Source: a virus (taxonomy: Duplodnaviria; Heunggongvirae; Uroviricota; Caudoviricetes). From it: a stretch of 19,014 nucleotides of DNA. The notes under the pieces were generated by a model. The model did no database searches and had not been told where the DNA came from. It saw only the letters and a list, made by a program, of their open reading frames with translations. Position numbers and translations under genes: made by a program. The stretch spans positions 1-19,014 of the IMG/VR virus record IMGVR_UViG_2645727905_000013; one strand, given 5' to 3'. This document shows, one piece after another, positions 1-16,976 of this stretch; positions within the stretch are counted from its first letter, which is position 1, and each line of letters opens with the position of its first letter.

Positions 1-534
1 TCACTTTTCATCCGTCGTTGACACATGCGGGTCGTCGTAAGCCAGTGCCTGCTGCTGACCGAGTATTTTGTTGATTACCTCAATCACCGTTTCACCGTGA
101 TCAGGCTGGACATCCGGAATAACACCCGACGGCGCACCGTTGTTCACCACCTCAATGCCGAAAGGCGCAGCAAGCGCCTGCGCAATCTGTACCAGCGATC
201 GTCCGTTAAACTGTGTCGATTCGGCTGCACAGTCAATCAGGTCAGCGGTCAGACTGCGTCCGGCAATACCGGTGCTGACCGAACGGGCATCGTAACGAAC
301 GGGCGTCGCCTCCACCCAGCCGGTGATCACCAGCTCATCACCAATCAGAACTTCCACTTTTGAACCGTTTTTAATACGCGGCTGAAGCGTGGTGATACAC
401 TCATCTCCCGGCCACTGGCGGGTGATCTCCACACTGAAATCCCGTGCCAGCCGTTCAATACCGGCACCGATGCGCACCGATGTCCAGCCATTCCACTCCC
501 GGCCATTTACCCGTAGCGTGACGTTATCGTTCAT
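1..534 (-). CDS. Mu-type tail/baseplate protein (gpP-like position), short, possibly truncated
   Basis: 177-aa ORF whose ATG overlaps the stop of the upstream DNA-circulation gene (tcat at 531-534). It occupies the position that follows gpN in Mu-type tail clusters. Its stop codon is at window bases 1-3. Family assignment is by context only. Confidence 0.4.
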   Translation of the reverse strand: MNDNVTLRVNGREWNGWTSVRIGAGIERLARDFSVEITRQWPGDECITTLQPRIKNGSKVEVLIGDELVITGWVEATPVRYDARSVSTGIAGRSLTADLIDCAAESTQFNGRSLVQIAQALAAPFGIEVVNNGAPSGVIPDVQPDHGETVIEVINKILGQQQALAYDDPHVSTTDEK

Positions 535-1859
535 TGCACTGGCACCTTCAGAGGGATCACCGGCACAAAGCCGGGATGTGTAATGGCATTGCGCCGGATA
601 ATGTCCGCGTCATGCGCCGCGTTATCAAACCAGGTCGCCGCCAGCACCAGCGCGGGTAAAACCTCATCCGGCGTACGCTGAATGATCCGCGCAGACTGTT
701 CAAGGCGCGTGTTGATATCCGCATTCAGATCTGCTTTCACCCGGCGCAGCGCCAGAAACAGCACATCACTGGTTGTACGGGACAACTCCTTATCAATTGC
801 CGTATTCAGTGTGTCGCGAATGTCGGTCAGCTCTTCCCACGTTGGCAGGTCAACCGTGTTTTTCACCGCCGGTGCATTGTTCAGTGCCGGATGCGTGACG
901 GAAGGCCAGCCGGTGCTCTGCGCGGGTGTTGTTGACTGCCCCACTGCGGCATTCTGCATCACCGCGGAAGTTGTTGGCGCAGGCAATCGGGTAACGGCAT
1001 ACGCCGCTTCGCTGATTGCAGTCGTACGAAGGGTGCTGGCAACCACGTTACGCTGCTGCGTCGCTGTGGCGGTGGTTTTACTGTCCGTTTTCCAGACACC
1101 GCGCGGTTGCAGATCGCTGCCGAGGCTGACACCGGAAAGCGTTTTGATCATGGTGACCAGGTCGCTGGCGTTACCATAAAGGCGCTTCCCGGTACGCCAC
1201 ATTTTCTGCACCTGCTCAACGAAATTTTTGCCTGACGATGGCGGCGGCAGAAGTACCGAGATATCCCCCTGCAACAGCCTGGCGGCATCCGATACAGCAG
1301 AATCCACCACTTTCATCGCATCAGAAACATACCCCAGCATTATGCTGGCATTACCGATAACGTCGTTCTGCACAAAATCTGCCACGCCATCGATACTGAA
1401 ACCACTGAAACTGTCACTGATGCAGTCATCCAGTGCAGAACAGGATGACATCAGCGTCTGCGCCGTCGCCGCACCTGATGTGGGGTAAGAGAGTTCTCCC
1501 GCTTCGACAAACTTCAGGTCAAAGCGGACAATACGCCCTTCACTCTTCGATGTGCTGACCCGAACCTCCCCGTCAACACAGACTTTCAGCTCACCGTATG
1601 TCGGATGGACAAGCGTGCCGGGACCGGGTTTATTCAGCGCATCAATCAGGCGATCGCGCTGGTCAAAGCAGTCATCTCCCACCACATAAGCCGTGATGGA
1701 CGGGCGGAAAGTGACTTTTCCCAGATCTTCGGTATAGGGTTTGTCGCGGTTCGGGTATTCGTGCGTTTCCACACGACGACCGGTTCCCGCACTTTCTTCT
1801 TCAACCTTAAACGGCACACCGCGAAATGACGCGTCCTGAAGTCTGTCTTTCCACGTCAT
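531..1859 (-). CDS. Phage DNA circulation protein (Mu gp43/N-like)
   Basis: N-terminal MTWKDRLQDASFRGVPFKVEEES... matches the recalled signature of the Mu N / DNA-circulation N-terminal domain. Start placed at the internal ATG (1857-1859), which has a GGAG 7 nt upstream; the ORF-track start at 1901 has no SD and would include the upstream hairpin. Confidence 0.7.
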   Translation of the reverse strand: MTWKDRLQDASFRGVPFKVEEESAGTGRRVETHEYPNRDKPYTEDLGKVTFRPSITAYVVGDDCFDQRDRLIDALNKPGPGTLVHPTYGELKVCVDGEVRVSTSKSEGRIVRFDLKFVEAGELSYPTSGAATAQTLMSSCSALDDCISDSFSGFSIDGVADFVQNDVIGNASIMLGYVSDAMKVVDSAVSDAARLLQGDISVLLPPPSSGKNFVEQVQKMWRTGKRLYGNASDLVTMIKTLSGVSLGSDLQPRGVWKTDSKTTATATQQRNVVASTLRTTAISEAAYAVTRLPAPTTSAVMQNAAVGQSTTPAQSTGWPSVTHPALNNAPAVKNTVDLPTWEELTDIRDTLNTAIDKELSRTTSDVLFLALRRVKADLNADINTRLEQSARIIQRTPDEVLPALVLAATWFDNAAHDADIIRRNAITHPGFVPVIPLKVPVQ

Positions 1860-1874
1860 ATAAACTCCGTACAT

Positions 1875-1896
1875 AAAAAATCCCACCGGAGTGGGA
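1875..1896 (-). terminator. Possible weak intrinsic terminator/attenuator between tape-measure and DNA-circulation genes
   Basis: On the minus strand: 6-bp stem tcccac/gtggga with a 4-nt loop, followed immediately by a T6 run. Confidence 0.3.
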
Positions 1897-1919
1897 CTCA
1901 TTAACAGATTAATTTTTCA

Positions 1920-2717
1920 TTACCTGCCAAAGCGCGTATAGCCAACATCATGGCTGACATCAAAACCGCTGGATCGCGTTTCCATAACCCGCATACCCGG
2001 AGGCGAATTCACAAAAGAGACCTTGATCTCACCATCAACTTTTGGCGCAGAAGCTTTGTTAATCATGAAGGGGGTCGGGCCTGTGACATCGGAGGCGTTG
2101 TTTGACTGAGCCGGATCTACCGCCGGATAAGGTGTGTATCCCCGCGCCGGTATTCCCGTCCCATAAGCATCATAAGCACCCGCGCCCCACTGCGCAGAGT
2201 TAATGGCATCGACCGTGTCACCGGAACTGTCGGTAAACCACTCAATAATTGGCTTCAGCTTGTCCCACATATCCTGAAACCACTTAACAACCGGCCCCCA
2301 GTTATTGATCACCATCCCCAGCGGCGACCAGGCAAAAACTTTCTTAAGGAGTTCCCAGCCGGCCTCAAAATAAGGACCAATGGTTTCCCAGAGTTTCTTA
2401 AAATAAGGTCCGACAACATCCCAGTTAGTGATAATTAATCCCGCAGCCAGGGCTATCGCCGTCGCAATCATGCCAATCGGCGTCATCGACATGATCCTGC
2501 TGACAATACTGATGGCACCGCCAACGCCCATCAATCCCAGTTTCAGAATCGCAAGACCGGCAGCAAGCCCGACGACGCCGCGAATAACCCGGGGATTTTC
2601 ATCCGCAAACTTCGTGAATTTCTCCCCCAACTCCCCCAGCCATTGCGTGATATTTTTAGCGTCACCAGAAAATGCGCCGCCAATAGCTGCAAGACCGTTA
2701 GTTGCGGTCCCCGTCAT
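1920..2717 (-). CDS. Tail tape measure protein, C-terminal segment (downstream of in-frame TAG)
   Basis: 265-aa ORF with a long Gly/Ala-rich hydrophobic stretch typical of tape-measure C-terminal regions. It is in the same frame as ORF 2724..3623, separated only by TAG (2724-2726) plus two codons. Confidence 0.55.
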   Translation of the reverse strand: MTGTATNGLAAIGGAFSGDAKNITQWLGELGEKFTKFADENPRVIRGVVGLAAGLAILKLGLMGVGGAISIVSRIMSMTPIGMIATAIALAAGLIITNWDVVGPYFKKLWETIGPYFEAGWELLKKVFAWSPLGMVINNWGPVVKWFQDMWDKLKPIIEWFTDSSGDTVDAINSAQWGAGAYDAYGTGIPARGYTPYPAVDPAQSNNASDVTGPTPFMINKASAPKVDGEIKVSFVNSPPGMRVMETRSSGFDVSHDVGYTRFGR

Positions 2718-2723
2718 TGCCTC

Positions 2724-3623
2724 CTACAGGTTGGACAGCGTACCAAGCTGTGCCTGAACACGTTTATTCAGGCTGGCCTGTTTATTCATCTTCTGCTGGA
2801 TCTGATCGTAACCATCCTTCCCTTTATCGATCAGAGCATTGACCACCTGAAGGGTTTCGGCATCATCACCAAATATTGCCTTAAGTACACCTGTTCGCTT
2901 AACGTCGGTCAGTTTTCGCAGCTTTGCCAGTTGCCTGAACATGTTATCAAGACCGCCAAAACTCCCTTTGCCGTCAGTAAAATCGAGCTGCACTCCGAGT
3001 TTCTGGCGGGCCATAACTTTATTAACGTCCCTGATTTTCTTAACGCTTAATCCGGACTGGATAACTTTTCGCAGGGCATTACCTGCCGACTCCCCGTTCA
3101 TCCCCATCTGATCCATCATGACGCTGATGGGGGCAAGGCTCTGTGCAGCCTGAAGACCATCCTTGTTCACCATCTTCAGAACAGAACTGGTTTTAGTGAA
3201 GAAGGACAACATGTTGGTATCGTCAACGCCCAGATAAAACGCCTTCTGGATAGTGTCGAACAGCCCCATCATGTCTTCTGACGCCGTTCCGGTAGCATCC
3301 TGCATCTTTGCAGCAAACTCAGCAGCCGCTTCCGGTGTTTTTTTCAGTTGTACCGCAAGATAGGCTGTCGCTTTACCCACACCACCCAGAATGTTTTCTG
3401 CCGGGATCCCCTGACGCACCAGCATCTGCATCATGTTCTGGAAATCAGCCGTTGTACCGGGTAGCTGGTTACCCAGGCCAATAGCCAGTTTATTGATGTC
3501 CTGAAAGCGCTTTCCGACCTCACCGTTCGCATCCATCATGGCAACTTTCAGCCCGGTATCCATTTCCGCATAAAACAACGGAACCAGCGTATTCGACGGA
3601 ATGGTGTTAAAGCTTATCGTCAT
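2724..3623 (-). CDS. Tail tape measure protein, N-terminal segment (ends at in-frame amber codon)
   Basis: 299-aa alpha-helical, Gln/Lys/Ala-rich ORF located upstream of the DNA-circulation gene as in Mu-type tails. Minus-strand read across the junction is ctg tag gag gca atg. Confidence 0.55.
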   Translation of the reverse strand: MTISFNTIPSNTLVPLFYAEMDTGLKVAMMDANGEVGKRFQDINKLAIGLGNQLPGTTADFQNMMQMLVRQGIPAENILGGVGKATAYLAVQLKKTPEAAAEFAAKMQDATGTASEDMMGLFDTIQKAFYLGVDDTNMLSFFTKTSSVLKMVNKDGLQAAQSLAPISVMMDQMGMNGESAGNALRKVIQSGLSVKKIRDVNKVMARQKLGVQLDFTDGKGSFGGLDNMFRQLAKLRKLTDVKRTGVLKAIFGDDAETLQVVNALIDKGKDGYDQIQQKMNKQASLNKRVQAQLGTLSNL

Positions 3624-3785
3624 CGGTATTCACCTTTTTATTCACGCGCCGGATATCACCCGCTGCTTCACGGCGCAGCCAGTAGTTGTTCTCGTCAACA
3701 TTTCGCCCTTCGGCGGGCAAAAGGTCGCCGCGGGCAGGGTCAGGAACTGACCGCCCTTTAACAGGTTTGACAAACATGAGGATCC

Positions 3786-4139
3786 TCAGGAAGGAAGGGT
3801 TATTTCGGTGTGATGTTCGATATCGCCGTCAGGCCCGTTACCGGGCTCGAGATAATCAACATCAATCGCCAGCGTTTGCAGTTCATCCAGACTGTTCAGA
3901 TCATCCTGCTGGCGGGTATCGTCTTCGGTCAGCTCGCTGATGATCGAAAAATCGAACTGATAAATCAGCTCATGACGATTCAGATCCAGCAGCGTGCCGC
4001 CGTCATAGGTAATCGGGTTACCGCACGCTTCCGGGTTCCAGCCCAGCAGAGCCTTAAAGAGCATCTGCCGGATATCCGTTCCTTCTGACCATGCCACCAT
4101 ATCCAGGAAAGCTTTACGCTGGGAATTTAGTATCTGCAT
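3786..4139 (-). CDS. Endolysin remnant: lambda R-type N-terminus (about 22 aa) fused to unrelated acidic sequence
   Basis: MQILNSQRKAFLDMVAWSEGTD closely matches the recalled lambda R N-terminus MVEINNQRKAFLDMLAWSEGTD; the remainder does not resemble R. The gene sits immediately downstream of the holin, as R does. Confidence 0.4.
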   Translation of the reverse strand: MQILNSQRKAFLDMVAWSEGTDIRQMLFKALLGWNPEACGNPITYDGGTLLDLNRHELIYQFDFSIISELTEDDTRQQDDLNSLDELQTLAIDVDYLEPGNGPDGDIEHHTEITLPS

Positions 4140-4142
4140 AAA

Positions 4143-4469
4143 TTACTCCTTAGAGCCACCAAACTTGTTACCGATCACTCTCATTGCAGCCCCACGAATT
4201 GCATCGACACCAATCAGCCCAACACCGCCACCAATGGCAACAGAAAGAGATTTAGGCCATCCGACATACTCAAGAGCGGATGCAAAAGTCAGCGTCAGAG
4301 CACCACAGAGCAAAATCTCGAGCGTTTTTCGCTTCCACCCACCACCACCGCCAAAATAGGCAATGCGCAATCCAGCCATAACAATCGACATAATCACTGC
4401 GCCAAGAGGCGTATCTCCACGCCACCAGCTCTGGAACAACTCCAGCCAGGTATTTGGGTTATGAGGCAT
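4143..4469 (-). CDS. Holin, lambda S family (class I)
   Basis: 108 aa with hydrophobic helices and a charged C-terminus. Segment LRIAYFGGGGGWKRKTLEILLCGALTL parallels lambda S [24 protein letters not shown]. It lies directly upstream of the R-like ORF. Confidence 0.65.
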   Translation of the reverse strand: MPHNPNTWLELFQSWWRGDTPLGAVIMSIVMAGLRIAYFGGGGGWKRKTLEILLCGALTLTFASALEYVGWPKSLSVAIGGGVGLIGVDAIRGAAMRVIGNKFGGSKE

Positions 4470-4622
4470 TTGTAGTTATCTCTCACCTCGCCGATACAGG
4501 AGGTGTAAATTGAGGGAGTACCACGAACCGCAAATCAGAAGCGGAAACGTAAAAGAAGTCGAGCCAATGGATAAGTACTAGATAGACCAAGCCCAACGAA
4601 TACCAAGGCCCAGAAAAGACAA

Positions 4623-4645
4623 AACCCGCTCAATGGCGGGTTTAA
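4623..4645 (-). terminator. Intrinsic terminator hairpin upstream of holin (tR'-like candidate)
   Basis: Perfect 8-bp inverted repeat aaacccgc/gcgggttt with a 6-nt loop; on the minus strand it is followed by a T-rich tract (tgtcttttct). Confidence 0.4.
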
Positions 4646-4725
4646 GCTGTGTGGCGAAGTAACCACTCTTAACAGATTACAAGAATTTTTGCGGACCGCG
4701 TTAATGATTTTTAATCCCAAAGTCG

Positions 4726-4754
4726 TATTATTCGTTTTTTACTGTAGGAGTTAA
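4726..4754 (-). promoter_or_regulatory. Candidate sigma70 late promoter (pR'-like) reading toward the lysis genes
   Basis: Minus strand: TTAACT (-35), 17-nt spacer, ATAATA (-10). Located about 75-95 nt upstream of the hairpin terminator and about 250 nt upstream of the holin. Confidence 0.3.
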
Positions 4755-4759
4755 CAGGT
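4740..4759. promoter_or_regulatory. LexA (SOS) box-like motif TACTGT-N8-ACAG
   Basis: Sequence tACTGTaggagttaACAGgt has the conserved CTGT and ACAG arms at canonical 8-nt spacing, with an imperfect central region. It sits 10 nt upstream of the KAP NTPase ATG and overlaps the opposite-strand promoter candidate. Confidence 0.3.
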
Positions 4760-4766
4760 TTATATT

Positions 4767-5609
4767 ATGTTAGATACACTATCGTTCACTGAACGTGACG
4801 AGTTCCAACGAAGAAACATCGCTGAAAATATCATCAAGTTGCTAAAACCAGAGGCAGACATTTCACCACTGGTAATAGATGGCGCATGGGGAACAGGGAA
4901 ATCAGAATTTAGTATCAAACTGAAAAATCTCATTATTGAGCAAGAACCCGAATCTAAAGTTGTTTATATTGATGCCTTTAAAGGGGATCATGCAGAATCT
5001 CCATTACTTCTCATAACCTCTGCAATTGCCAGCATTTTGCCTGAGGAAGAAAAACAACACTTCATTAAGAGGTCTCTTCCTGCAATTCGATTTGGTTTAA
5101 AAACTGTACTAAAAGCTGGTGCAGGTTGGTTTTTACGACAGGAGGCTAGTGAAGTTGCCGAAGAATTCCAAGATGCGATGAAGAAAGCAAGCAATGCAGC
5201 AATAGATGGGACTATTGAAAGTTTGCTTGAAGACCATATGGAATCAGAGAAAAACATAAATTCACTTAAATCTTGCATCGAAAGTATTTCAGAAAATCAA
5301 AAGATAGTAATTATAATTGATGAATTAGATCGATGTAAGCCGAGTTTTTCAACAAATGTCATTGAAACAATAAAACACATTTTTGACATCAATAATGTCT
5401 TTTTTATTTTAGTTACAAACACAGAACAATTAAGAGCATCGATAAATCATATTTATGGTTATAGTATTAACTCACAAAAGTATCTTGACAAGTTTATAAA
5501 ATATACCATCACGCTTCCAGATACATGTTTGATAAATGGTCACGACGTATGTAAAGCCTCTGTTATATATTGGAATTACCTTGTAGAAAAAAACAAGATC
5601 ATTAAATGA
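4767..5609 (+). CDS. KAP-family P-loop NTPase, N-terminal part (Walker A and B present); gene appears frameshifted
   Basis: Walker A VIDGAWGTGKSEF (GxWGxGKS type) and Walker B IVIIIDELDRC (DELDRC) are the KAP NTPase signatures. AT-rich composition. Encoded on the opposite strand between Q and the lysis genes. Confidence 0.7.
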   Translation: MLDTLSFTERDEFQRRNIAENIIKLLKPEADISPLVIDGAWGTGKSEFSIKLKNLIIEQEPESKVVYIDAFKGDHAESPLLLITSAIASILPEEEKQHFIKRSLPAIRFGLKTVLKAGAGWFLRQEASEVAEEFQDAMKKASNAAIDGTIESLLEDHMESEKNINSLKSCIESISENQKIVIIIDELDRCKPSFSTNVIETIKHIFDINNVFFILVTNTEQLRASINHIYGYSINSQKYLDKFIKYTITLPDTCLINGHDVCKASVIYWNYLVEKNKIIK

Positions 5610-5757
5610 AATCAATAGCTTATCAGGTTATTTTATCCGTGATTTAATTCAACGAACCAACTTATCATTACGTGAAACACAAACATTTTCACGCAATCTT
5701 AACATTTTTCAACTGTTAAACGACAATGAAGACAACAGTAGTGATCGTTTTATAAAT

Positions 5758-6099
5758 ATGATCTTTGTCGTAGCTGTCTTCATACATTGCTTTGGTGACA
5801 AGGAAAAACTAAAACACGAAATTACCGCTGAATCTATATCTTATTTAGCAGACCTGCTTAAAATAAAAGAGATACCTTATTCTTATGAGATGAGTTCGAA
5901 AATCCCTAAAATATCAATTGTATTCTTTGGAATAATTAAAGACAGTATTACTCTTAATGAGCGATTTGCTCCTAAAAGTGATGAAGAACTAAAAAGATTC
6001 ACCAAAGTTTATACTGATTATGACCACCTAAATTTTTGGAGTACTACACCCAGAGAGTTATTGATAAAATATATCAATCAAATGTCATTCATTCAGTAA
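5758..6099 (+). CDS. Probable C-terminal continuation of the KAP NTPase gene in the +1 frame
   Basis: This frame is open from 5587 (just after a TAG at 5584-5586) through 6099, overlapping the end of the upstream ORF. Deleting one A from the A7 run (5587-5593) fuses the two ORFs into about 443 aa. The first ATG is only at 5758. Confidence 0.4.
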   Translation: MIFVVAVFIHCFGDKEKLKHEITAESISYLADLLKIKEIPYSYEMSSKIPKISIVFFGIIKDSITLNERFAPKSDEELKRFTKVYTDYDHLNFWSTTPRELLIKYINQMSFIQ

Positions 6100-6101
6100 A
6101 T

Positions 6102-6126
6102 AATACGCCCCTGCATGGGGCGTATT
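6102..6126. terminator. Bidirectional intrinsic terminator between convergent KAP moron and Q gene
   Basis: Perfect 10-bp stem aatacgcccc/ggggcgtatt with a 5-nt loop, flanked by T-rich tracts on both strands (tttattaaa on plus; ttattta on minus). Confidence 0.55.
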
Positions 6127-6129
6127 TTA

Positions 6130-6495
6130 TTAAACGTCCAAATCTAATGTTAGATCTAGCATGGAAAGGCAGCCATCAATAAATCCTTCGGCTAACTGTA
6201 TTTCTATACGTATCAATTTCTCATCCTTTCCACGCGCCTTTGCAATCTTACGCTTGGATATTCTGTATAAATAATGTGCCACAAGAAGCGAATGCTCATA
6301 AGGTCTTTTTTGCTTTAGACGAGCAAGACAACCTTCAATAATTAATGCATCACTATCCGAACAAGCCAAGCGTTTCTTGCTGGTATAGGGAAGAAGTCCC
6401 TTAAACCCAGCAGCTATAGGTGAATAATCAACACCAGAGTTATCACTCGCAGCCCATGCTCCCCAACGTTCAAGTATCATCTGAATATCACGCAT
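6130..6495 (-). CDS. Late-gene antitermination protein Q (QuuD / phage 82 Q-like family)
   Basis: MRDIQMILERWGAWAA...IAAGFKGL closely matches the recalled N-terminus of E. coli DLP12 QuuD. Start placed at the ATG at 6493-6495, which has an AGAAAGG SD; the ORF-track start codon at 6508-6510 is TTG. Confidence 0.75.
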   Translation of the reverse strand: MRDIQMILERWGAWAASDNSGVDYSPIAAGFKGLLPYTSKKRLACSDSDALIIEGCLARLKQKRPYEHSLLVAHYLYRISKRKIAKARGKDEKLIRIEIQLAEGFIDGCLSMLDLTLDLDV

Positions 6496-6512
6496 CACCT
6501 TTCTCCACAAAA

Positions 6513-7508
6513 TCAGGCCAGTACGCCAATTGCCAGCGCACGATCGATAAAACGAAATATCAGCTCCAGCTGAGAGCCATACTTCTCTTCAAATGCCACG
6601 GTATCCGCATGCAGCTCGTCGTGATGCTTTCTGCACAAAGGCAACACAAAGAGGTCATGCGCTTTTGTACCCATTCCACCCTGACCGTGGCCTATCAGAT
6701 GGTGGGGATCATCAGCAGGCTTTCCACAACATGCACACGGCTGTGTCTTAACCCAGCGCGTGTACTTTTCATTAACCCAGCGGCGGCTTTTTGGGCGTAA
6801 CATAAAAGACTCCGGCGACTCCGGATCCACTTTCAGCGCCAGCACCTTTTTCGCTTTATCCAGGATGATGCTGGTGGCAGGAACCGAAGGCACAAGGTCA
6901 CTTTCCCGGGTGACAGACGGCACAACAGGTTTCGGTAATCTCAGCGCCTTACGGGCTACGCTTTCAGGTAAGGCATCCGCCAGGTCATTACGAATCAGCC
7001 ACCAGCACAGTTCCGGCATTGTCACGGCATGGTTATCATCAAAATCGAGATCCCGACGGACTACAGACAACACCCAACGGGCACAGTTATCCGTTGCCAT
7101 TGATTCCAGCCGCTCCGTGAACTGATCACGTAACTGATTATCGCAGTGCCAGCACAGACGGATTGCGCCCGGCGCGTGTCGCATTGTGGTCATGTTCTCG
7201 CTGTGCCAGTCGGAATGAGGCCACTGGCAGCCTTTTTCACGAAGTAACCAGCTTTCAAGACATTCCACCCCACCAGCACGACGAATCACTGCCTCATTAC
7301 GGAACACGGCCCGAACGGCAGGATCATCCGCCAGCGGTTGTGATGCCGCCGGAACGGCACCACTGGCGAAAGATGAATAACGTTCCGGCTCAGGCTCCAG
7401 CAGGACACGCCCCTGCATAAACAGGGGCATCAGCTCTGAACCTGGCCTGAACAATACGATCCCCATACGCGGGGCAATTTCAGGGGTCAGTAGCGCTCTC
7501 ACGGTCAC
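6513..7508 (-). CDS. DUF968-like phage protein with C-terminal HNH/zinc-finger-like motif (YdfU-like)
   Basis: C-terminus CACCGKPADDPHHLIGHGQGG...CRKHHDELH has an HNH-type Cys/His pattern. It sits immediately upstream of Q, as ydfU does relative to quuQ in the Qin prophage (recalled). Confidence 0.5.
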   Translation of the reverse strand: MTVRALLTPEIAPRMGIVLFRPGSELMPLFMQGRVLLEPEPERYSSFASGAVPAASQPLADDPAVRAVFRNEAVIRRAGGVECLESWLLREKGCQWPHSDWHSENMTTMRHAPGAIRLCWHCDNQLRDQFTERLESMATDNCARWVLSVVRRDLDFDDNHAVTMPELCWWLIRNDLADALPESVARKALRLPKPVVPSVTRESDLVPSVPATSIILDKAKKVLALKVDPESPESFMLRPKSRRWVNEKYTRWVKTQPCACCGKPADDPHHLIGHGQGGMGTKAHDLFVLPLCRKHHDELHADTVAFEEKYGSQLELIFRFIDRALAIGVLA

Positions 7509-7509
7509 C

Positions 7510-8319
7510 TCAATGAACGGTATCGAGCAGCTTTAACAGCTCAGGGAATCGGGATTCGAAGAAATGCGGCTGCGTCTCGCGCGGATTTGCGGGACTGGTG
7601 ATGTTCTTGCCGAACATGCAGCCTTTCGCCGTCAGCGACCAGAATTTTTTGATGTTGTTAATCGCAGTGCGGCTGTATCGTTCACGTTGTTCAACGATCC
7701 CCAGCTTCGCCATCTGGTGATATGCCTGATTAGCTGTCAGGCGGATACCATACTGCTTCAGCAGTGCACTCAGTGACAGCGTGGGGCGGCTTGAGCCATC
7801 AGGCGCGTCAGCAGGAGCATCAATGGCATAGCGCGGTGCCAGATTCGGTAAGCCAACAGCCTCCTGGAGTTTCTGACAGGCACCAAGCACTGAAGAGTTA
7901 GACAGGTTTAACTCCCGGCGCATAAAGTCCAGCAGGATCACGCCAGCCTGCATCTTGTCAGCAGCCTGTCCGGATAATTTTTCCGGTGCGCTGGTTACCA
8001 TATCGAAAGTACGGATCACCTTCAGATGGAATGACGGGCTGATCCACATTGCATAGGCATACACCAGTTCCTTGCAGACATATGTTCCCCGTTCATTTCC
8101 CCCATGAATCACACTCACCGGGTCAACACCCAAATTCTGGGTGTTGGTCAATTCATGAACAAGCTCAACAGTTTGTTGGCTGGAAAGAAACTTTCCCGGC
8201 TCCTTGGTTCTGGCATTTGCACCAGATGCTACTGCTGCGCGATGCAGATCGTTCAGGCTGTAACGCCCATAAGCATCACGACGAACTTCAATACCATCAA
8301 TGACCATCAGATTATTCAT
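7510..8319 (-). CDS. KilA-N domain protein (antirepressor-like)
   Basis: N-terminal MVIDGIEVRRDAYGRYSLNDLHRAA... is typical of the KilA-N domain. Start placed at the ATG at 8317-8319, which has a GAGGAG SD about 8 nt upstream. Confidence 0.65.
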   Translation of the reverse strand: MNNLMVIDGIEVRRDAYGRYSLNDLHRAAVASGANARTKEPGKFLSSQQTVELVHELTNTQNLGVDPVSVIHGGNERGTYVCKELVYAYAMWISPSFHLKVIRTFDMVTSAPEKLSGQAADKMQAGVILLDFMRRELNLSNSSVLGACQKLQEAVGLPNLAPRYAIDAPADAPDGSSRPTLSLSALLKQYGIRLTANQAYHQMAKLGIVEQRERYSRTAINNIKKFWSLTAKGCMFGKNITSPANPRETQPHFFESRFPELLKLLDTVH

Positions 8320-8338
8320 ACTTCGTTTCTCCTCTTGA

Positions 8339-8728
8339 TCAGGCGGCTGCACCCGCCGTTTTCTCGTACTTACTGATAGTGATCTCGACCTTCCCTTCCG
8401 GGATAACCGGTCCCCACTCCACCAGCATTCTTTTCACCTGACTGTCGTCTTCCCACACACCCGCGTGGGTCAGGGCGTCAAACAGCGCCTTGTTATAGTT
8501 GTCCAGATCGCGGATCCGGTTATCCGGAGGAAACAACACGATCTCCACTGAAGCAGGTGCCGACGTTGGTTTTGGCAGACGACGTAACTGCTCAACTATT
8601 GCTGCACACGCTGCGCTCTGGAATTTGCGCCCCGCCGCGCTTATCAGGCTCTTACCTGCAAACGCCCCTTTGTTGGGGTGTCGCCAGTACGTGTTCACGC
8701 TGGGCGGGAAAGGCAGGATCAGCTTCAT
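8339..8728 (-). CDS. rusA: Holliday junction resolvase RusA
   Basis: 129 aa; ...PPSVNTYWRHPNKG...RDLDNYNKALFDALTHAGVWEDDSQV... parallels E. coli RusA (PPSNNRYYRH...[27 protein letters not shown]). Its ATG overlaps the stop of the upstream gene. Confidence 0.8.
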   Translation of the reverse strand: MKLILPFPPSVNTYWRHPNKGAFAGKSLISAAGRKFQSAACAAIVEQLRRLPKPTSAPASVEIVLFPPDNRIRDLDNYNKALFDALTHAGVWEDDSQVKRMLVEWGPVIPEGKVEITISKYEKTAGAAA

Positions 8729-9051
8729 ACTTTCAGGCCCCTCTCATGTAACCAGTGGGCTGCACGCAGCCTGGCGTTTTCCTCACCGGCAAGCAGTGAG
8801 CGGATAATCCCGACCGCCTCGCTGTCGTCGTCCTTCACCGCGGTATGAAGCGTTATCCCCCGGGCCACGCCACGCTTTATCGTGATGACGCCTTTTTTCT
8901 CCAGCGCACGAAGATGCTCCACCGCTGCATTCACCGAACGGTATCCCAGCATGGTTGCCACCTCCTGATTGGTTGGTGGGAAGCCACGTTCTTTCTGATA
9001 AGAAATCAGCATATCCAGCACCTGCTGCTGGCATTGAGTTAACGTCGTCAT
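8725..9051 (-). CDS. LexA N-terminal DNA-binding-domain-only protein (no S24 peptidase domain)
   Basis: MTTLTQCQQQVLDMLISYQKERGFPPTNQEVATMLGYRSVNAAVEHLRALEKKGVITIKRGVARGITL aligns with the LexA N-terminus ([68 protein letters not shown]). It retains an AGE linker motif but ends about 25 aa later. Start (ATG at 9049-9051) overlaps the upstream stop (TAATG). Confidence 0.65.
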   Translation of the reverse strand: MTTLTQCQQQVLDMLISYQKERGFPPTNQEVATMLGYRSVNAAVEHLRALEKKGVITIKRGVARGITLHTAVKDDDSEAVGIIRSLLAGEENARLRAAHWLHERGLKV

Positions 9052-9545
9052 TAAGCCCCCACGTAATTCCCTGACAGATACCACTCTTCACCCGATGCAG
9101 CGCGCTTGCTGCTTTTCCGTAAGCACCGCTCACGACGCGCCAGAAAATTGTTTCGTTCTGGCTGGGAGTGGCTTTCACGGAATGCCGCCATCCACACGGT
9201 TGCAGCACGACGAAATAAGCCCCTGGACTCCAGTTCTTCCGCCTGGCGGGCCAGGCACAAAATCACCCGCGGGTCGTTAGTGCCGACATAGAAATTGCGC
9301 ACAGGTCTGGTTTCACGAACTGGTTGCCGTTCCGCCTCCGGAGATATCTTTGTCTGGCGCGGGAAATGTCTGCGTGTATCCCCTTCACAACGGTGAGCCA
9401 CACGCCCACTCTGACGTAACTTGCTTGCTGACTGCAGAACGCGCTGCCGTGAGTAACCTGCAAAAGCATCAGCAATGTCTCCGGAAGTACCCCCTGGATG
9501 GGCTTCAATGAATTTCTGAACTTCATTCAAAAGACTCATAATCAC
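9051..9545 (-). CDS. Hypothetical regulator; C-terminal region PerC/ANR-like
   Basis: 164-aa ORF whose ATG overlaps the stop of the replication gene (ATGA). C-terminal ARQAEELESRGLFRRAATVWMAAF...RRERCL resembles the recalled PerC/Pch motif GLWRRAAxRW. The N-terminal half may be a winged helix. Confidence 0.4.
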   Translation of the reverse strand: MIMSLLNEVQKFIEAHPGGTSGDIADAFAGYSRQRVLQSASKLRQSGRVAHRCEGDTRRHFPRQTKISPEAERQPVRETRPVRNFYVGTNDPRVILCLARQAEELESRGLFRRAATVWMAAFRESHSQPERNNFLARRERCLRKSSKRAASGEEWYLSGNYVGA

Positions 9546-10483
9546 CCCCTGAATCCTGCCGGGATCTGGCTGTAGTCCACATTGTCGTAACTGGCTTTGA
9601 AGTACGGGTCTTCACGTTTTTCTGTGTGCGTGCTGACGGACGGCGATAAGCGCAGGGAAAGCTCATCCCATTTTTCCCGCAACTTCGACGGGCTGAGCAC
9701 GTTACGGCACCAGAACGGATCGCGGCTGACGCGGCTGTACATCTCGCAGATTTGTTTGTGAGTACGACCATCCTGCACACACATCAGGCGAATTTCGTTT
9801 GCCCAGGCTGTCCAGTTCGGTTCTTTGGGACGAATCACCTCGCCGTCACATTCGGCGGCCTGCTCGTACAGGGCGATGATTTTTTTCCAGAGCCACTGTG
9901 CGCAGGTCAAATCATCCTGCGTTCCCCACTGACGCTTTTTAGGGCTGAATACAACCGCATCAGGATGGCGAGTTAAAAAATCCTGTTCATCCGTCTGCGT
10001 GTCCGGTTGCGAAGCGTCCGGACGAGAAGTTTTTTTATCTGACGGATCATGTTTTGATTTTACTGACGGATCCCCGCCAGATTCTGACGGGTGAAAACCC
10101 GCTTTTTTGCCAGATTTCGACGCATCAAATTTTGACGGGTCAGATTTTGATGCGTCAGATTTTGACGGGTCAGAATCTGACAGTTGAGAAAATGCCGCTG
10201 CCTGAAGCTTCGCAACGTTAAGCTGATAAACATTCGACGCATTGCGGTTACCCTGGCGACGCGCCTTACGCGTTAACCAGCCTTCTGCTTCCAGCCGTGC
10301 GATAGCCGTTCTGACGGTACTCATCCCCGCGCCAATCTGGCGGGCAATGGTTTCAATTGATGGCCAGCACACACCTTCGTCATTACTGAAATCAGCCAGG
10401 CGGGCCATAATTGCCACGCTGGATAACTTCATGCCTGATGCAGCGCAACCATCCCATACATAGCCGGTTAATTTAGTACTCAT
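9542..10483 (-). CDS. Phage replication initiation protein (lambda O-like role), N-terminal wHTH, internal repeat linker
   Basis: N-terminal wHTH-like segment SIETIARQIGAGMSTVRTAIARLEAEGWL. A repetitive linker (SDSDPSKSDASKSDPSKFDASKSG) is encoded by tandem 15-bp DNA repeats. Located downstream of cro and the cII-position genes. Confidence 0.6.
   Translation of the reverse strand: MSTKLTGYVWDGCAASGMKLSSVAIMARLADFSNDEGVCWPSIETIARQIGAGMSTVRTAIARLEAEGWLTRKARRQGNRNASNVYQLNVAKLQAAAFSQLSDSDPSKSDASKSDPSKFDASKSGKKAGFHPSESGGDPSVKSKHDPSDKKTSRPDASQPDTQTDEQDFLTRHPDAVVFSPKKRQWGTQDDLTCAQWLWKKIIALYEQAAECDGEVIRPKEPNWTAWANEIRLMCVQDGRTHKQICEMYSRVSRDPFWCRNVLSPSKLREKWDELSLRLSPSVSTHTEKREDPYFKASYDNVDYSQIPAGFRG
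10038..10185. repeat. Iteron-like tandem direct repeats (candidate replication origin) inside the replication initiator gene
   Basis: Four or more tandem 15-bp units (caaattttgacgggt, cagattttgatgcgt, cagattttgacgggt, cagaatctgacagtt) plus degenerate upstream copies, with an adjacent T-rich tract (agtttttttatc, 10029-10040). Confidence 0.55.
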
Positions 10484-10652
10484 GACCGACCTCTATTTCC
10501 CTGAATTTACGACGAAACTGTTCGAGCGGACTGAAGCATTCATGCTCATAACCTTCGCGGAGGTAGATAACCCGTTGTGTTTCCGGCTCCCAACGAATGA
10601 CTCTGACGGGCACTCCGTAGTGATCTTTGAACCAGCGGTTAACTTGTCGCAA
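10473..10652 (-). CDS. Small ORF (59 aa, TTG start) overlapping the 3' end of ORF 10493..10831; alternatively the displaced C-terminus of that gene
   Basis: AAGGAG SD 8 nt upstream of TTG; translation [59 protein letters not shown] is protein-like. Its stop overlaps the start region of the replication gene. Below the 60-aa ORF-track cutoff. Confidence 0.3.
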
Positions 10653-10831
10653 AGGACTGTCTCCTTCTGCCGGTTGAAATCACCCACAGCCCACTCTGCA
10701 AAGCTGTGGGTTACAATTTCCCTGTCACCTGGTACATTCACTGCATAGCAATATTCCACCTTCGCTTTTCCACCCGGTACAGGAAGCGCAATCAGTTGCG
10801 AGCGACGGTAGTGTGTTGTTAAACTGTTCAT
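10493..10831 (-). CDS. Hypothetical protein (C-terminal third looks non-protein-like; possible frameshift)
   Basis: ATG overlaps the stop of the upstream gene (ATGA at 10828-10831), which supports the start. A second frame with a strong SD carries protein-like sequence over its 3' part. Confidence 0.35.
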
Positions 10832-11442
10832 GCGTTAGTTTCTCCACAACCAGAAGCAATCGACGCCACGACGCCCGGAGCTGCACACTCGCGGGCGTCA
10901 TTACTTTCTGAAATGCAAAAAATTTTGTAGACAAGTGCTGCATGCTCCTGCAGCTTCGAAATTGAGAGATACAGCTCGTCGTTAATTGCTGTCTTCTCAT
11001 GCGGTTCCACTACACCGTCTTCAATTGCTGAACGAATCTGTTTTGAATAACTGCCGATCTGTTCAATGACTTCCAGCAGGCGCTGGTTAATATCGGCGTT
11101 GTCCACATCCTCGACGTCAGGAAGAGACACAAAGACGCCATTTGCAGACTGCGCCACAGCGTCAGCAATGAAGTGAGTTCCACCAGCACGTTGCAAAATC
11201 ATTGCCCATCCCAGCGGGAAAATCTGATCGCCATCTGCACGAAGGCGGTTAAATAATGCGTTCTCTGTTACATCCAGCCAGTCAGCTGCTTCAGCGTAAC
11301 CACCCGGCAACGCTGCGATAGTTTTTCTGACAGCTTTCACGTACCACTCAGGCTGTTTTTCTACTTTCCAGTGATGCTTACCCACGGTTAGCCTCATCGT
11401 TCTGTGGTTTCTGTTAATCGATTTATCCATTAGATTTTTCAT
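10828..11442 (-). CDS. Hypothetical early protein in the cII/YdaT position downstream of cro
   Basis: Long ORF directly following cro. Start uncertain: ATGs at 11440-11442 and 11428-11430 overlap or abut the cro stop; the ORF-track start at 11499 would overlap cro by 77 nt. Function not recognised. Confidence 0.4.
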
Positions 11443-11623
11443 AAAGCTCAGGTTTAAATGGCAACCGTCCGCAAGTTCTATATGCAGCTTCTGCTGCACG
11501 TCCTTTTGGAATTAACTGGCCCGGACGGTTTCGCCACTGATAAACGGCTTCAGTTGTTATGCCGAAAAAAGCAGCAACTTTCTCAATACTGCCGAAGTAG
11601 CTTTCGATATCGTCAGTTGTCAT
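11423..11623 (-). CDS. cro: Cro-like HTH regulator
   Basis: 66-aa HTH protein (GITTEAVYQWRNR) transcribed divergently from the CI-like repressor, with a GGAGGG SD upstream. Confidence 0.7.
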   Translation of the reverse strand: MTTDDIESYFGSIEKVAAFFGITTEAVYQWRNRPGQLIPKGRAAEAAYRTCGRLPFKPELYEKSNG

Positions 11624-11720
11624 ACGCCCTCCAAACTAAGTTTTATTAGATGCTAATTACAAATCTATCTTTGGTCAACAAAAACTAAGATTACTTAGTA
11701 ATTAAAGAAATGGTGCTCCT
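11624..11720. promoter_or_regulatory. cI-cro intergenic operator/promoter region (OR-like)
   Basis: 97-bp AT-rich divergent intergenic region containing the palindrome ACTAAGattaCTTAGT (11684-11699) and a further ACTAAG copy (11635-11640). A possible minus-strand promoter is TTGACC, 17 nt, TAGCAT. Confidence 0.5.
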
Positions 11721-12347
11721 ATGGAAACGGTTGGTCAGCGTATAAAAGCTCTGAGAAGAGTAACCAGAACGTCCCAGAAAGAATTGGGTAAATTTTGTGG
11801 AGTAAGCGACGTTGCTGTGGGGTACTGGGAGAAAGACATCAATACCCCTGGTGGGGAGGCACTTTCGAAATTAGCGAAGTTCTTCAATACGTCAATAGAT
11901 TACATTCTTTATGGTGCTGAGTTTGAAGGCAAACTCGTCACAAACATGCGCAGAGTTCCTGTAATATCGTGGGTTCAGGCTGGGCAGTTTACTGAGTGCA
12001 GGGCAGCAGAAGTGTTTAGTGAAGTGGACAAGTGGGTAGATACATCATTAAAGATTGGTGATAACTCATTTGCATTAGAGGTTAAAGGTGACTCCATGAC
12101 TAACCCTAATGGCCTCCCAACAATACCAGAAGGCGCAACAGTGATTGTAGATCCAGATGCAGAACCTCGTCATGGAAAAATAGTCATCGCTCGACTTGAT
12201 GGAACAAACGAAGCTACAGTAAAAAAATTAGTCATCGATGGCCCTCAAAAGTTTTTAGTGCCATTAAATCCTCGGTATCCCAACATCCCTATCAATGGTA
12301 ATTGCCTTATCATTGGTGTAGTCAAAGGAGTTCAATACGAACTCTAA
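11721..12347 (+). CDS. cI: CI-like prophage repressor (HTH-XRE N-domain plus S24 LexA-type autopeptidase C-domain)
   Basis: N-terminal HTH (QKELGKFCGVSDVAVGYWEKD), a putative Ala-Gly cleavage site (VQAGQF), catalytic Ser in GDSM and Lys in TVKKL. Confidence 0.85.
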   Translation: METVGQRIKALRRVTRTSQKELGKFCGVSDVAVGYWEKDINTPGGEALSKLAKFFNTSIDYILYGAEFEGKLVTNMRRVPVISWVQAGQFTECRAAEVFSEVDKWVDTSLKIGDNSFALEVKGDSMTNPNGLPTIPEGATVIVDPDAEPRHGKIVIARLDGTNEATVKKLVIDGPQKFLVPLNPRYPNIPINGNCLIIGVVKGVQYEL

Positions 12348-12357
12348 GACCTCTCTT

Positions 12358-12430
12358 TTCTAACTAAGGCACCGAACTAAGAAAAGTTTGGTGTTTTCTC
12401 TTGCCATAATAACTAAGTTAAGTTAGATTT
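12358..12430 (+). promoter_or_regulatory. Candidate OL/pL-like region downstream of cI (repeated ACTAAG motifs; possible promoter)
   Basis: ACTAAG at 12363-12368, 12377-12382 and 12413-12418, the same hexamer as in the cI-cro operators. Possible promoter TTGCCA (12401-12406), 17 nt, TAGATT (12424-12429). Confidence 0.25.
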
Positions 12431-12534
12431 TATGTCAAAGATAACGAACAGGCAGGACGCGCACGAAGTAGCCCGCCCGGTACGTACGAAGACCGGGATG
12501 ATTCGTTAGCGGATGATTTCAGTGGAGAGAATAG

Positions 12535-12843
12535 ATGAATGAGCAGGATTTGAAGCATGTGATCGCATTGTTGCTGGAAGACGCTAAACGTTTGCAGCAG
12601 ATAGAGCCAAATGCAGGCACTGAGGCCCGTATTTTGTTAGCAAAACAGGCATTAAAGACTTGCGGGGCGCAAGACCCTGATCGAACCAAGTTCATGAATT
12701 TCATGGCTAACACGATCACCCCACTGCCATGCAATGGAGAGAGGGTTAGCCGTGTTTATCACGACACAATGGTTAAGGCATTAAGAATCGAGCTTGATGG
12801 GCTTAGGCGTAAGATCGTGATGAACAAAATCGTTGCCAACTAA
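12535..12843 (+). CDS. Hypothetical immunity-region protein
   Basis: 102-aa ORF with a GGAGAG SD at appropriate spacing; first gene downstream of cI. No family recognised. Confidence 0.4.
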   Translation: MNEQDLKHVIALLLEDAKRLQQIEPNAGTEARILLAKQALKTCGAQDPDRTKFMNFMANTITPLPCNGERVSRVYHDTMVKALRIELDGLRRKIVMNKIVAN

Positions 12844-13122
12844 GGAAGCAGACGGAAGTAAGCATGCGCTTTGTTCAAATTTGCAGACAAATATATTTGC
12901 GTCAACACCAGCACTGTTAGCAATGGAAAAAGTTTGATCAAGGATTTGTTGGCAGTTCATTGTGCTTTTGAGGATATATCCCTCTGGAATCAGTCTGCAG
13001 CAGCTATCGTCAGACTCTTTGATTGTTTTCTGGTACAGAAAGTTAAGCATTAATTCTTCAAATTTTTTGGTCTGTTCGGCTGTTGCTTCAAACAGACGAA
13101 CGTGAACATAAAACTGGTTCAT
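12781..13122 (-). CDS. Hypothetical protein encoded antisense to the early-left operon (immunity-region moron candidate)
   Basis: ORF with an AGGAAA SD 5 nt upstream of the ATG at 13120-13122 (protein MNQFYVHVRLFEATAEQ...). Relatively AT-rich. Convergent with 12535..12843, overlapping it by 63 nt. Confidence 0.35.
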   Translation of the reverse strand: MNQFYVHVRLFEATAEQTKKFEELMLNFLYQKTIKESDDSCCRLIPEGYILKSTMNCQQILDQTFSIANSAGVDANIFVCKFEQSACLLPSASLVGNDFVHHDLTPKPIKLDS

Positions 13123-13401
13123 TAGATTTCCTTGCTGGCTGTGTGAGAACTCCAGCATACCACCGAGCCTGAAGTGGTGAAAAGACAGGCAATAGTTTCA
13201 TTGCTGTGTGTAGTCTTGGCGGTACCAGCTTGTACCCTTGCTTCCGGCTGGTACCGTCCTTTTTACAAAACAGAGAAGAGTATCACCGGACGACGGGCTC
13301 ATAACCCAATCCATCCGGGCGGCTGCCACCGCAGGTGTTCTTCTCTGTTTTGTGGAGAAACCAACCGACCTTGCAGGGTCGATATGATGAGGAGCAGCAA
13401 A

Positions 13402-13764
13402 ATGGCTAGCGAACGCAGTACTGATGTGCAGGCATTTATCGGGGAGCTGGACGGCGGCATATTTGAAACCAAAATCGGCGCTGTTCTCAGTGAAGTCGCT
13501 TCCGGTGTGATGAACACAAAAACCAAAGGGAAAGTCTCACTCAACCTGGAAATCGAACCATTTGATGAGAACCGTGTGAAAATCAAACACAAACTCTCAT
13601 ATGTTCGCCCGACTAACCGCGGGAAAATTTCCGAAGAAGACACCACCGAAACGCCGATGTATGTCAATCGCGGTGGTCGCCTGACTATTCTGCAGGAAGA
13701 CCAGGGACAATTACTGACTCTTGCCGGTGAACCTGACGGAAAACTCCGCGCAGCAGGTCGTTAA
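13402..13764 (+). CDS. Hypothetical phage protein (possibly YfdP-like)
   Basis: Strong GAGGAG SD 8 nt upstream of the ATG at 13402. The ORF-track N-terminal extension from 13174 is Cys/Arg-rich and implausible. Confidence 0.45.
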   Translation: MASERSTDVQAFIGELDGGIFETKIGAVLSEVASGVMNTKTKGKVSLNLEIEPFDENRVKIKHKLSYVRPTNRGKISEEDTTETPMYVNRGGRLTILQEDQGQLLTLAGEPDGKLRAAGR

Positions 13765-13829
13765 TATCGTTTTTAATAAACTGATTATTTATCTCATCAC
13801 TGAATATCTTTATATAGTGAGGACTTATT

Positions 13830-14654
13830 ATGTCTCAGAACTTAGACGCAACCGCAATTAATCAAATCCATGCCCTTATTTCTGCTCAGGGTGTTAATGA
13901 AATTATCAGTAAGATTGGTGCCGATGCTGTGGCATTGCCTGAGAATTTCCGCATTCATGATCTGGAAAAATTTAATTTAAATCGCTTCCGTTTCCGAGGT
14001 GCGCTTTCCACTGCAAGCATCGATGACTTTACCCGTTATTCTAAAGATCTTGCAGATGAAGGCACCCGCTGCTTTATCGATGCTGATAATATGCGTGCCA
14101 TCAGTGTGCTTAACCTGGGCACTATTGATGAACCAGGTCACGCAGATAACACCGCCACTCTCAAACTGAAAAAGGCAGCACCGTTCTCTGCTCTGTTGTC
14201 TGTTAACGGCGAGCGTAACTCCCAGAAGTCACTGGCAGAATGGATTGAAGACTGGGCCGACTACCTTGTGGGCTTTGATGCTAATGGTGACGCTATTCAG
14301 GCAACAAAAGCGGCTGCGGCTGTCCGTAAAATCACGATTGAAGCAAACCAGACCGCTGATTTTGAAGATAATGACTTCAGCGGCAAACGCTCCCTGATGG
14401 AGTCTGTCGAAGCGAAGACCAAAGATATTATGCCAGTGGCATTTGAATTTAAATGCGTTCCGTTTGAAGGTCTGAAAGAACGTCCGTTTAAATTACGTCT
14501 CAGCATTATCACTGGCGATCGTCCTGTACTGGTTCTGCGCATTATTCAGCTGGAAGCAGTGCAGGAAGAAATGGCTAACGAATTTCGTGATCTGCTTGTT
14601 GAGAAATTCAAAGACAGCAAAGTAGAAACCTTTATTGGTACTTTCACCGCCTGA
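13830..14654 (+). CDS. Hypothetical phage protein, 274 aa (YfdQ-like by size and context)
   Basis: Well-formed ORF with a GAGGA SD. Size and position next to an HD-domain gene match the yfdQ-yfdR arrangement recalled from the E. coli CPS-53 prophage. Confidence 0.5.
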
Positions 14655-14666
14655 TTTCATTACTGC

Positions 14667-14688
14667 AAATGCCCCTGCGGGGGCATTT
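14667..14688 (+). terminator. Strong hairpin (possible partial terminator) between the 274-aa gene and the HD-domain gene
   Basis: Perfect 9-bp stem aaatgcccc/ggggcattt with loop tgcg; the downstream T-tract is short (ttt). Confidence 0.3.
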
Positions 14689-14782
14689 ATGGAGACGTAA
14701 TTAACTCAATAATCGCCGGATGGTAAGGGCTTCTTTTTACCAAAATTCAGTGCGGTGCAGCGCAAATAACGTGGAGAACAAA

Positions 14783-15331
14783 ATGTCATTTATTAAAACT
14801 TTTTCCGGGAAGCATTTTTATTATGACAAGATAAATAAAGACGACATCGTGATTAACGATATCGCGGTTTCCCTTTCAAATATCTGTCGCTTTGCAGGAC
14901 ATCTTTCACACTTCTACAGTGTCGCCCAGCATGCGGTGCTTTGCAGCCAGCTGGTGCCACAGGAATTTGCTTTTGAAGCATTAATGCATGATGCAACAGA
15001 AGCTTATTGCCAGGACATCCCCGCTCCACTGAAACACCTTCTTCCTGACTATAAACGGATGGAAGAAAAAATAGATGCCGTAATCCGTGAGAAATACGGG
15101 TTACCCCCGGTTATGAGCACGCCCGTGAAATATGCCGATCTCATCATGCTGGCAACCGAACGCCGCGATCTCGGGCTTGATGATGGCTCTTTCTGGCCTG
15201 TACTGGAAGGCATCCCGGCAACAGAGATGTTCAACGTGATTCCACTGGCACCGGGCCATGCCTACGGGATGTTTATGGAACGCTTTAAAGAGCTACATAA
15301 GATACATAAACAATCCAGACAGCGAAATTAA
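14783..15331 (+). CDS. HD-domain phosphohydrolase (YfdR-like 5'-deoxynucleotidase family)
   Basis: His...HD pattern (RFAGH, AQHAV, LMHDATEAY). Start placed at the ATG at 14783 with a GGAGAA SD; about 182 aa. Confidence 0.65.
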   Translation: MSFIKTFSGKHFYYDKINKDDIVINDIAVSLSNICRFAGHLSHFYSVAQHAVLCSQLVPQEFAFEALMHDATEAYCQDIPAPLKHLLPDYKRMEEKIDAVIREKYGLPPVMSTPVKYADLIMLATERRDLGLDDGSFWPVLEGIPATEMFNVIPLAPGHAYGMFMERFKELHKIHKQSRQRN

Positions 15332-15359
15332 CTAGTGAAATAGTTTTGTAGCAAAAGAA

Positions 15360-15620
15360 ATGAGGTTATCAAAAATGCTTCAAATGCTGACACTTGAGGA
15401 ATGGGCTACGGAAAAATACAGAAGTAATCCTCCAAGTGTGTCCACATTGCGTCGTTATGCTAAGCAGAATTTATTTTGTCCACCGGCAATGAAACAAGGT
15501 CGACTATGGCGAGTGCGTGAGGACGCAGAGTTAGTTGGGGAATTAGTTACTCCTGTCATCAAGAAAAGTGATTCTATTATTCTACAAAGGATTTTAAGTA
15601 ATGGCAGCCAGACCACGTAA
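15360..15620 (+). CDS. xis: Excisionase (lambda Xis-like)
   Basis: LTLEEWATEKYRSNPPSVSTLRRYAKQNLFCPPAMKQGRLWRV parallels lambda Xis (YLTLQEWNARQRRPRSLETVRRWVRECRIFPPPVKDGREYLF). Overlaps the integrase start by 20 nt. Start may be the internal ATG at 15375 or 15384. Confidence 0.7.
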   Translation: MRLSKMLQMLTLEEWATEKYRSNPPSVSTLRRYAKQNLFCPPAMKQGRLWRVREDAELVGELVTPVIKKSDSIILQRILSNGSQTT

Positions 15621-16728: not shown

Positions 16729-16976
16729 AAATTTAAGCGTCCCAACGCCACCTTGAACTTCTCACCACACATGAAAAAGAACCAAACTGTTCGCTTTGAG
16801 CGAAAGGCGGACGTCATGAGACGCGTATAACATATATTGTAAATATAAGGTTCGATTATTTGCTTTCTTAACGTAAAATAAGTATGGAATGGTCTTGCTT
16901 ACGTAAGGTCTTTTAAGTTATATCTAGTAGTTATGATTTTAAATAGGTCTTTCGTGCTAATAAATAAGGTGGTTGC
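16729..16976. other. Probable attachment-site / prophage boundary region (core not identified)
   Basis: Non-coding AT-rich segment immediately downstream of int with a marked compositional shift. Contains ttacgtaa-type palindromes (16870-16910). Confidence 0.3.

Follow-up and report, generated by a model that had tools for sequence, protein, structure and literature searches.

An amber codon in the tape measure remnant of a probable cryptic SfV-like prophage of Escherichia coli

On the minus strand of one viral DNA record (IMG/VR IMGVR_UViG_2645727905_000013, positions 1 to 19,014; this whole stretch of 19,014 nt is referred to as the window), a reading frame for a phage tape measure protein is broken by one TAG codon and opens again two codons later. 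Is this stop a lesion, a boundary between two working genes, or a codon that ribosomes read through? The original prediction raised all three options, and each calls for a different annotation of the locus.

Across the stop, the minus strand reads ...CAG CTT GGT ACG CTG TCC AAC CTG TAG GAG GCA ATG ACG GGG.... The two ORFs have a common frame (2724-1920 = 804 = 268x3), with only TAG, GAG and GCA between them. The next ATG follows the stop at a distance of 6 nt, and an SD-like hexamer precedes it with a spacing of 2 nt (Table 1). This layout of same-frame ORFs, TAG plus two codons, AGGAGG and ATG is just as originally described. The upper ORF matches PF10145 (PhageMin_Tail) at residues 44-252 (E = 8.6e-28), covering the full profile (1-201). 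The lower ORF holds the hydrophobic segments of the C-terminal half of the tape measure protein, as seen in its translation.

Table 1. Features of the interrupted tape measure locus and its surroundings (window coordinates)
Feature	Coordinates	Strand	Description
Amber codon TAG	2726..2724	-	Position of Trp344 (TGG) in the intact tape measure protein (611 aa)
SD-like AGGAGG	2725..2720	-	Followed by CA, then ATG at 2717..2715
Upper ORF, 299 aa	3623..2724	-	Sheath codons 1-22 plus tape measure codons 67-343, amber codon at the end
Lower ORF, 265 aa	2717..1920	-	Tape measure codons 347-611; start is internal Met347
Sheath codons 1-22, MTISFNTIPSNTLVPLFYAEMD	3623..3558	-	Source of the fusion ORF's start codon and ribosome-binding site
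Junction J1	3557..3558	-	In-frame join between sheath codon 22 and tape measure codon 67
DUF2635 gene (similar to Mu gp38)	3607..3777	-	Kept between the two deletions
117-aa fusion	3786..4139	-	Endolysin codons 1-22 in frame with tail terminator codons 92-186; junction J2 near 4071
DNA circularization protein gene (similar to Mu gpN), 442 aa	531..1859	-	Apparently intact
Baseplate gpP-like gene	1..534	-	177 aa, versus 359 aa in the intact prophage
KAP-family NTPase gene	4767..6099	+	280-aa and 113-aa pieces; A6 to A7 (+1) slip at ~5587-5593

Codon 344 in intact tape measure genes

When 5,426 complete E. coli genomes were searched by megablast, the region 1800-3800 was matched in 1,132 records. 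The annotation there gives one "phage tail tape measure protein" and, after it, a "DNA circularization protein". SfI and SfII of Shigella flexneri (98.6% identity for both) and SfV (98.2%) come closest among isolated phages, with Escherichia phages SKA5 (97.2%) and vB_EcoM-689R6 (96.6%) as further relatives. In SfV, SfI and vB_EcoM-689R6, the tape measure gene is one ORF of 1,836 nt, encoding 611 aa. The SfV record lists Mu-like neighbours (gpL, gp38, gpN and gpP), and the vB_EcoM-689R6 record names the tape measure protein Mup42.

We aligned the locus codon by codon with five intact genes, those of SfV, SfI, vB_EcoM-689R6 and the prophages of strains AH01 and Z0117EC0098. The sequences were colinear over 1,638 nt, with no indels and with 12-56 substitutions, mostly synonymous, and homology crossed the TAG unbroken into the second ORF. 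Because both ORFs align without indels to a single 611-aa gene in all five references, their arrangement is not a chance juxtaposition. At the stop, 5/5 references read AACCTGTGGGAGGCAATG (AAC CTG TGG GAG GCA ATG, versus AAC CTG TAG GAG GCA ATG in the window). One G-to-A transition, at window 2725, thus accounts for the lesion (W344*), and this point mutation is seen directly in the alignment. The original prediction had allowed that related phages might also carry two separate genes at this position; each intact homologue is a single ORF with TGG.

Absence of the TAG elsewhere is likewise a direct observation. A 61-nt query centred on the stop found 915 E. coli complete-genome records and matched 0/915 exactly, with identity at 60/61 positions among the matches listed. 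An exact scan of GTDB species-representative genomes did not find the TAG context TCCAACCTGTAGGAGGCAATGAC. Six sister remnants of the same prophage, described below, have TGG at codon 344 in 6/6 cases. The mutated base lies outside CCWGG on inspection, and a Dcm-site hotspot was accordingly rejected.

The same transition accounts for the SD-like hexamer. The G-to-A change converts TGGGAGG to TAGGAGG, and the intact GGGAGG lies within the Trp-Glu-Ala codons. The ATG at 2717 corresponds to Met347, an internal residue in every homologue. Since the hexamer is a by-product of the mutation and the methionine is present in all homologues, neither is evidence of an evolved restart site.

Two deletions that predate the stop

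The region 1920-3623 had been taken for a complete tape measure gene; it is really a deletion fusion, sheath(1-22)::tape measure(67-611). The sequence at 3558..3623 is the same as the beginning of the sheath protein (499 aa) in prophage L001, and E. coli matches to the sheath half of a query spanning J1 fall in an annotated phage tail sheath gene. Every E. coli match to 1800-3800 ends at window 3557. Pairwise BLAST against L001 aligned window 3557..26 with L001 6001..9532, and window 4076..3551 with L001 3087..3613. Relative to a second intact prophage, L002, 2,395 bp are missing at J1, from sheath codon 23 through tape measure codon 66. With this segment went the remainder of the sheath gene, the genes for the tube and for the tail assembly protein (chaperone), and tape measure codons 1-66. 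J1 did not occur in any of 5,426 complete E. coli genomes, where a 71-nt junction query gave half-length matches only.

The locus thus has neither an N-terminus of its own nor an uninterrupted ORF, as codons 1-66 are replaced and a stop stands at codon 344. Nor does it have the normal tail-module context: L001, L002 and SfV carry genes for the sheath, tube and tail assembly protein, and in the window these are deleted. Judged on its sequence, the locus is a pseudogene of the PF10145 tape measure family (SfV orf14 / Mu gp42 type) and not a functional member. Being a sheath::tape measure deletion fusion, the gene had already lost its function when the amber codon appeared.

The second deletion, J2, is larger. 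Mapping of the whole window onto L002 showed 9,337 bp to be missing at this junction. These include most lysis genes (among them an Rz-like gene) and the genes for HNH, the small and large terminase subunits, portal and protease, as well as those for the major capsid protein, connector and head closure. In the resulting 117-aa fusion protein, PF23840 was detected at residues 21-66. No complete E. coli genome contained J2, a 71-nt junction query again giving half-length matches only. Both deletions are read directly from these comparisons, and together they account for the loss of ~11.7 kb of essential morphogenesis genes.

The left breakpoints of J1 (3551-3565) and J2 (4065-4080) are alike. 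In each, the 5' gene is left at codon 22, after GGATA, and the endolysin and sheath genes have in common the motif GGAA.GGATAAC..GGCG. With the break marked by a slash, the sequences are GGAACGGATA/ACGGGCG for endolysin and GGAAATGGATA/ACCAGGCG for sheath. (T)CCGG is the landing point of both junctions, and each fusion keeps the frame. The chance expectation for a 7-mer common to the two in the same register is roughly 1e-4. Despite these like breakpoints, J1 and J2 appear to be separate events, to judge from two contigs (L014 and L015) that carry J2 only.

Other parts of the element are damaged to different degrees. The gpN-like gene has one synonymous change, at 1641, specific to the lineage of the window. 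A terminator-like hairpin with a T-run (GAGTCCCACTCCGGTGGGATTTTTTT; 1878-1899, minus strand) separates the end of the tape measure frame from the gpN start. A 456-aa ORF from the ATG at 1901 runs through this hairpin; homologues begin gpN at the ATG at 1859 (442 aa). Across 1700-4800, counts of predicted promoters and terminators were no higher than in shuffled sequence, and nothing was specific to the TAG region. For the gpP-like gene, phage homology gives way at about window 26 to one end of an IS100kyp-like element (IS21 family). The sequence adjoining the cut gpP gene in an identical contig (L003, 13590-13700) matches the IS100kyp element end, and contigs of several draft assemblies break at this gpP/IS end. 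The KAP-family NTPase gene, which lies between Q and the holin gene, weakly matches a model of the QatA anti-phage ATPase, below the cut-off.

Retained are the early region (repressor/Cro, replication, RusA, KilA-N, DUF968 and Q), the holin gene and xis/int. A residual prophage backbone is therefore present and the genes for particle formation are lost, which is the state expected of a cryptic prophage. Exact protein matches carry E. coli as their source name. We infer that the element is a cryptic SfV-like prophage in E. coli, unable to make heads or tails; to judge from its gene content, it would produce no particles.

Some differences from L002 look like ordinary lambdoid mosaicism rather than decay. 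An N6-adenine methyltransferase gene (~650 bp) is absent at 9048-9051, and ~700 bp near the immunity region (12510-13202) are unrelated to that prophage. Past the e14-type xis/int, the segment 16977-19014 encodes a SMEK-domain protein (306 aa) and has a gene weakly similar to trypsin/HtrA-like serine protease. No close counterpart of this segment occurs in complete E. coli genomes (~80% to plasmid-borne SMEK genes). The flank 16750-19014 likewise gave only matches of ~80%, to plasmid or chromosomal SMEK-domain genes, and is therefore uninformative on the integration site. The SMEK/protease stretch may belong not to the core chromosome but to an accessory or defence islet of its own.

Sister remnants and the order of decay

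The exact 117-aa J2 fusion protein was found on 15 contigs of public assemblies. All known copies of the remnant come from draft, Logan or metagenome assemblies, and by comparison of their DNA the contigs fall into three nested stages.

In stage A, represented by L014 (GCA_001283865.2) and L015 (GCA_001284385.1), J2 is the only junction present, and the sheath gene runs beyond codon 22. These contigs end inside the sheath gene and could be chimeric if the strains also carry an intact SfV-like prophage. Stage B comprises six contigs: L009 (GCA_002075205.1), L010 (an ENA metagenome scaffold), L011 (GCA_902505375.1), L012, L013 and L016. They have both J2 and J1, an uninterrupted fusion ORF of 567 aa with TGG, and an intact KAP NTPase gene (443 aa) where it is covered; L016 covers only the 3' end of that gene. 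Their gpP gene encodes the same 177 aa, or 167 aa in L013, where it is cut by the contig end.

Stage C consists of the window, L003/L008 (GCA_001266305.1) and L004 (Logan SRR19671050), in which the TAG and the KAP frameshift are added to the features of stage B. L003/L008 match the window at 100% identity across 13,623 nt, L004 across 8,450 nt. Relative to stage B, the lineage of the window shows four specific changes in 5-10 kb: the W-to-stop change at 2725, an N-to-T change at 2074 in the tape measure remnant, the synonymous change in gpN, and a one-base insertion at 5593.

The order of events can be observed directly in this series. The contigs indicate that the large deletion J2 came before J1, and that the amber codon arose after J1, together with the KAP frameshift. 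Because stages A to C are nested, the amber codon is the latest step of the decay series.

What the stop represents

These data make it very probable that a spontaneous G-to-A change turned Trp344 into the amber codon, a nonsense mutation in an already broken tape measure remnant of a cryptic SfV-like prophage of the Mu-like, contractile-tailed type. One of the three options first proposed, a nonsense mutation in a decaying prophage, is thereby borne out: homology is unbroken, intact homologues have TGG, and ~11.7 kb have been lost. The other two, expression as two polypeptides and stop-codon readthrough, found no support.

For expression as two functional polypeptides, AGGAGG and ATG would drive reinitiation, and the split would be tolerated or even useful. 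The stop and the ATG are indeed close together, with a strong SD-like hexamer between them, and termination-reinitiation over such short distances is common in bacteria. Yet the hexamer arose as a by-product of the mutation, the ATG encodes Met347 of every homologue, and the spacing from SD to ATG is merely 2 nt. Moreover, no split homologue was seen among 915 E. coli records, the five references and the six sister remnants. The tube, sheath and chaperone partners, along with all head genes, are deleted, and the split is confined to the most decayed sub-lineage, where it occurs alongside a frameshift in another gene. We consider a two-polypeptide function very unlikely. A selective origin is also highly improbable; here, the fusion (567 aa in the sisters) would have been kept for a host-beneficial or toxic activity of its hydrophobic, putatively membrane-active C-terminal half, and the amber codon selected to silence it or to free the 265-aa fragment.

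Readthrough of the UAG, by a suppressor tRNA or by programmed recoding, would yield a full-length protein. The frame is open for 265 codons downstream, but this is equally expected of a recent mutation. Recoding sites are defined by a conserved stop, and this stop is not conserved (0/915 E. coli records, 0/5 references, 0/6 sister remnants). A tRNA scan found no tRNA genes in the window, and hence no suppressor in cis, and no Rfam family matched the window at gathering thresholds. Even if made in full length, the product would join sheath to tape measure sequence, lack its N-terminus and have no tail to measure, and readthrough deserves hardly any credence. The same can be said of a sequencing or assembly error in an uninterrupted gene. 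The TAG is a single-base difference from very close relatives, as such an error would be, but the identical TAG sequence occurs in an NCBI assembly (GCA_001266305.1, JHTC01000038.1) and in an independent Logan assembly of a separate run (SRR19671050). Both sources are 100% identical to the window over 8.4-13.6 kb, each reported for two samples. The same base in two independent sources makes a sequencing error unlikely, and the thought that a sense codon really stands at this position is contradicted at the assembly level.

With the nonsense mutation as the preferred reading, the history of the locus runs as follows. The 9,337-bp deletion came first, removing the terminase, portal, capsid and connector genes. 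The 2,395-bp deletion then swapped the first 66 tape measure codons for 22 sheath codons, with loss of the sheath, tube and assembly genes. Last, the G-to-A transition would have become fixed without opposing selection. The gene was already non-functional, with J1 and J2 both earlier, so the amber codon probably reflects neutral decay. If Q-dependent late transcription persists, translation begun at the former sheath start would terminate at the UAG, giving a product of 299 aa. Ordinary coupling of termination to reinitiation may let some ribosomes resume at the AUG, which lies 6 nt further on, even though the SD spacing is 2 nt. Neither fragment could contribute to a tail.

The locus is best annotated as a pseudogene (sheath'::tape measure fusion, W344*) of a cryptic SfV-like prophage; to list it as a recoding candidate, or as two tail genes, would be a mislabel. 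Beyond annotation, the importance of the stop is small. A by-product of the analysis is a clean nested decay series of a single prophage across public assemblies, which might be used as a lineage marker or to illustrate, on a small scale, in what order and at what tempo a prophage decays.

In kind, this is ordinary pseudogene decay, with nothing new about it. The parent gene was of the SfV type: like the tape measure genes of SfV (orf14, NP_599046.1), SfI and SfII, with 98.2-98.6% nt identity over 1,638 colinear nt, it encodes PF10145 and the same C-terminus and is followed by the same Mu gpN-like gene. Unlike them, the copy in the window lacks codons 1-66, carries 22 sheath codons in their place, has the W344* lesion and has no tube, sheath or chaperone gene upstream. 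A parallel is the programmed -1 frameshift of the phage tail assembly chaperone upstream of tape measure genes, which belongs to the same tail-operon neighbourhood and gives two related products. That site, however, is conserved among phages and lies in a gene deleted here, whereas the stop in the window is a plain nonsense codon in a single sub-lineage. As a whole, the element is like E. coli K-12 cryptic prophages such as e14 and CPS-53. These also keep a lambdoid early region and integrase/excisionase and have lost morphogenesis genes through deletions, IS insertion and point lesions, and RefSeq gives homologues in related prophages e14/CPS-53 names (ymfL, ymfQ, intE, xisE, yfdN and yfdP-yfdT). 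The present element differs from e14 and CPS-53 in having junctions of its own, absent from the 5,426 complete E. coli genomes searched.
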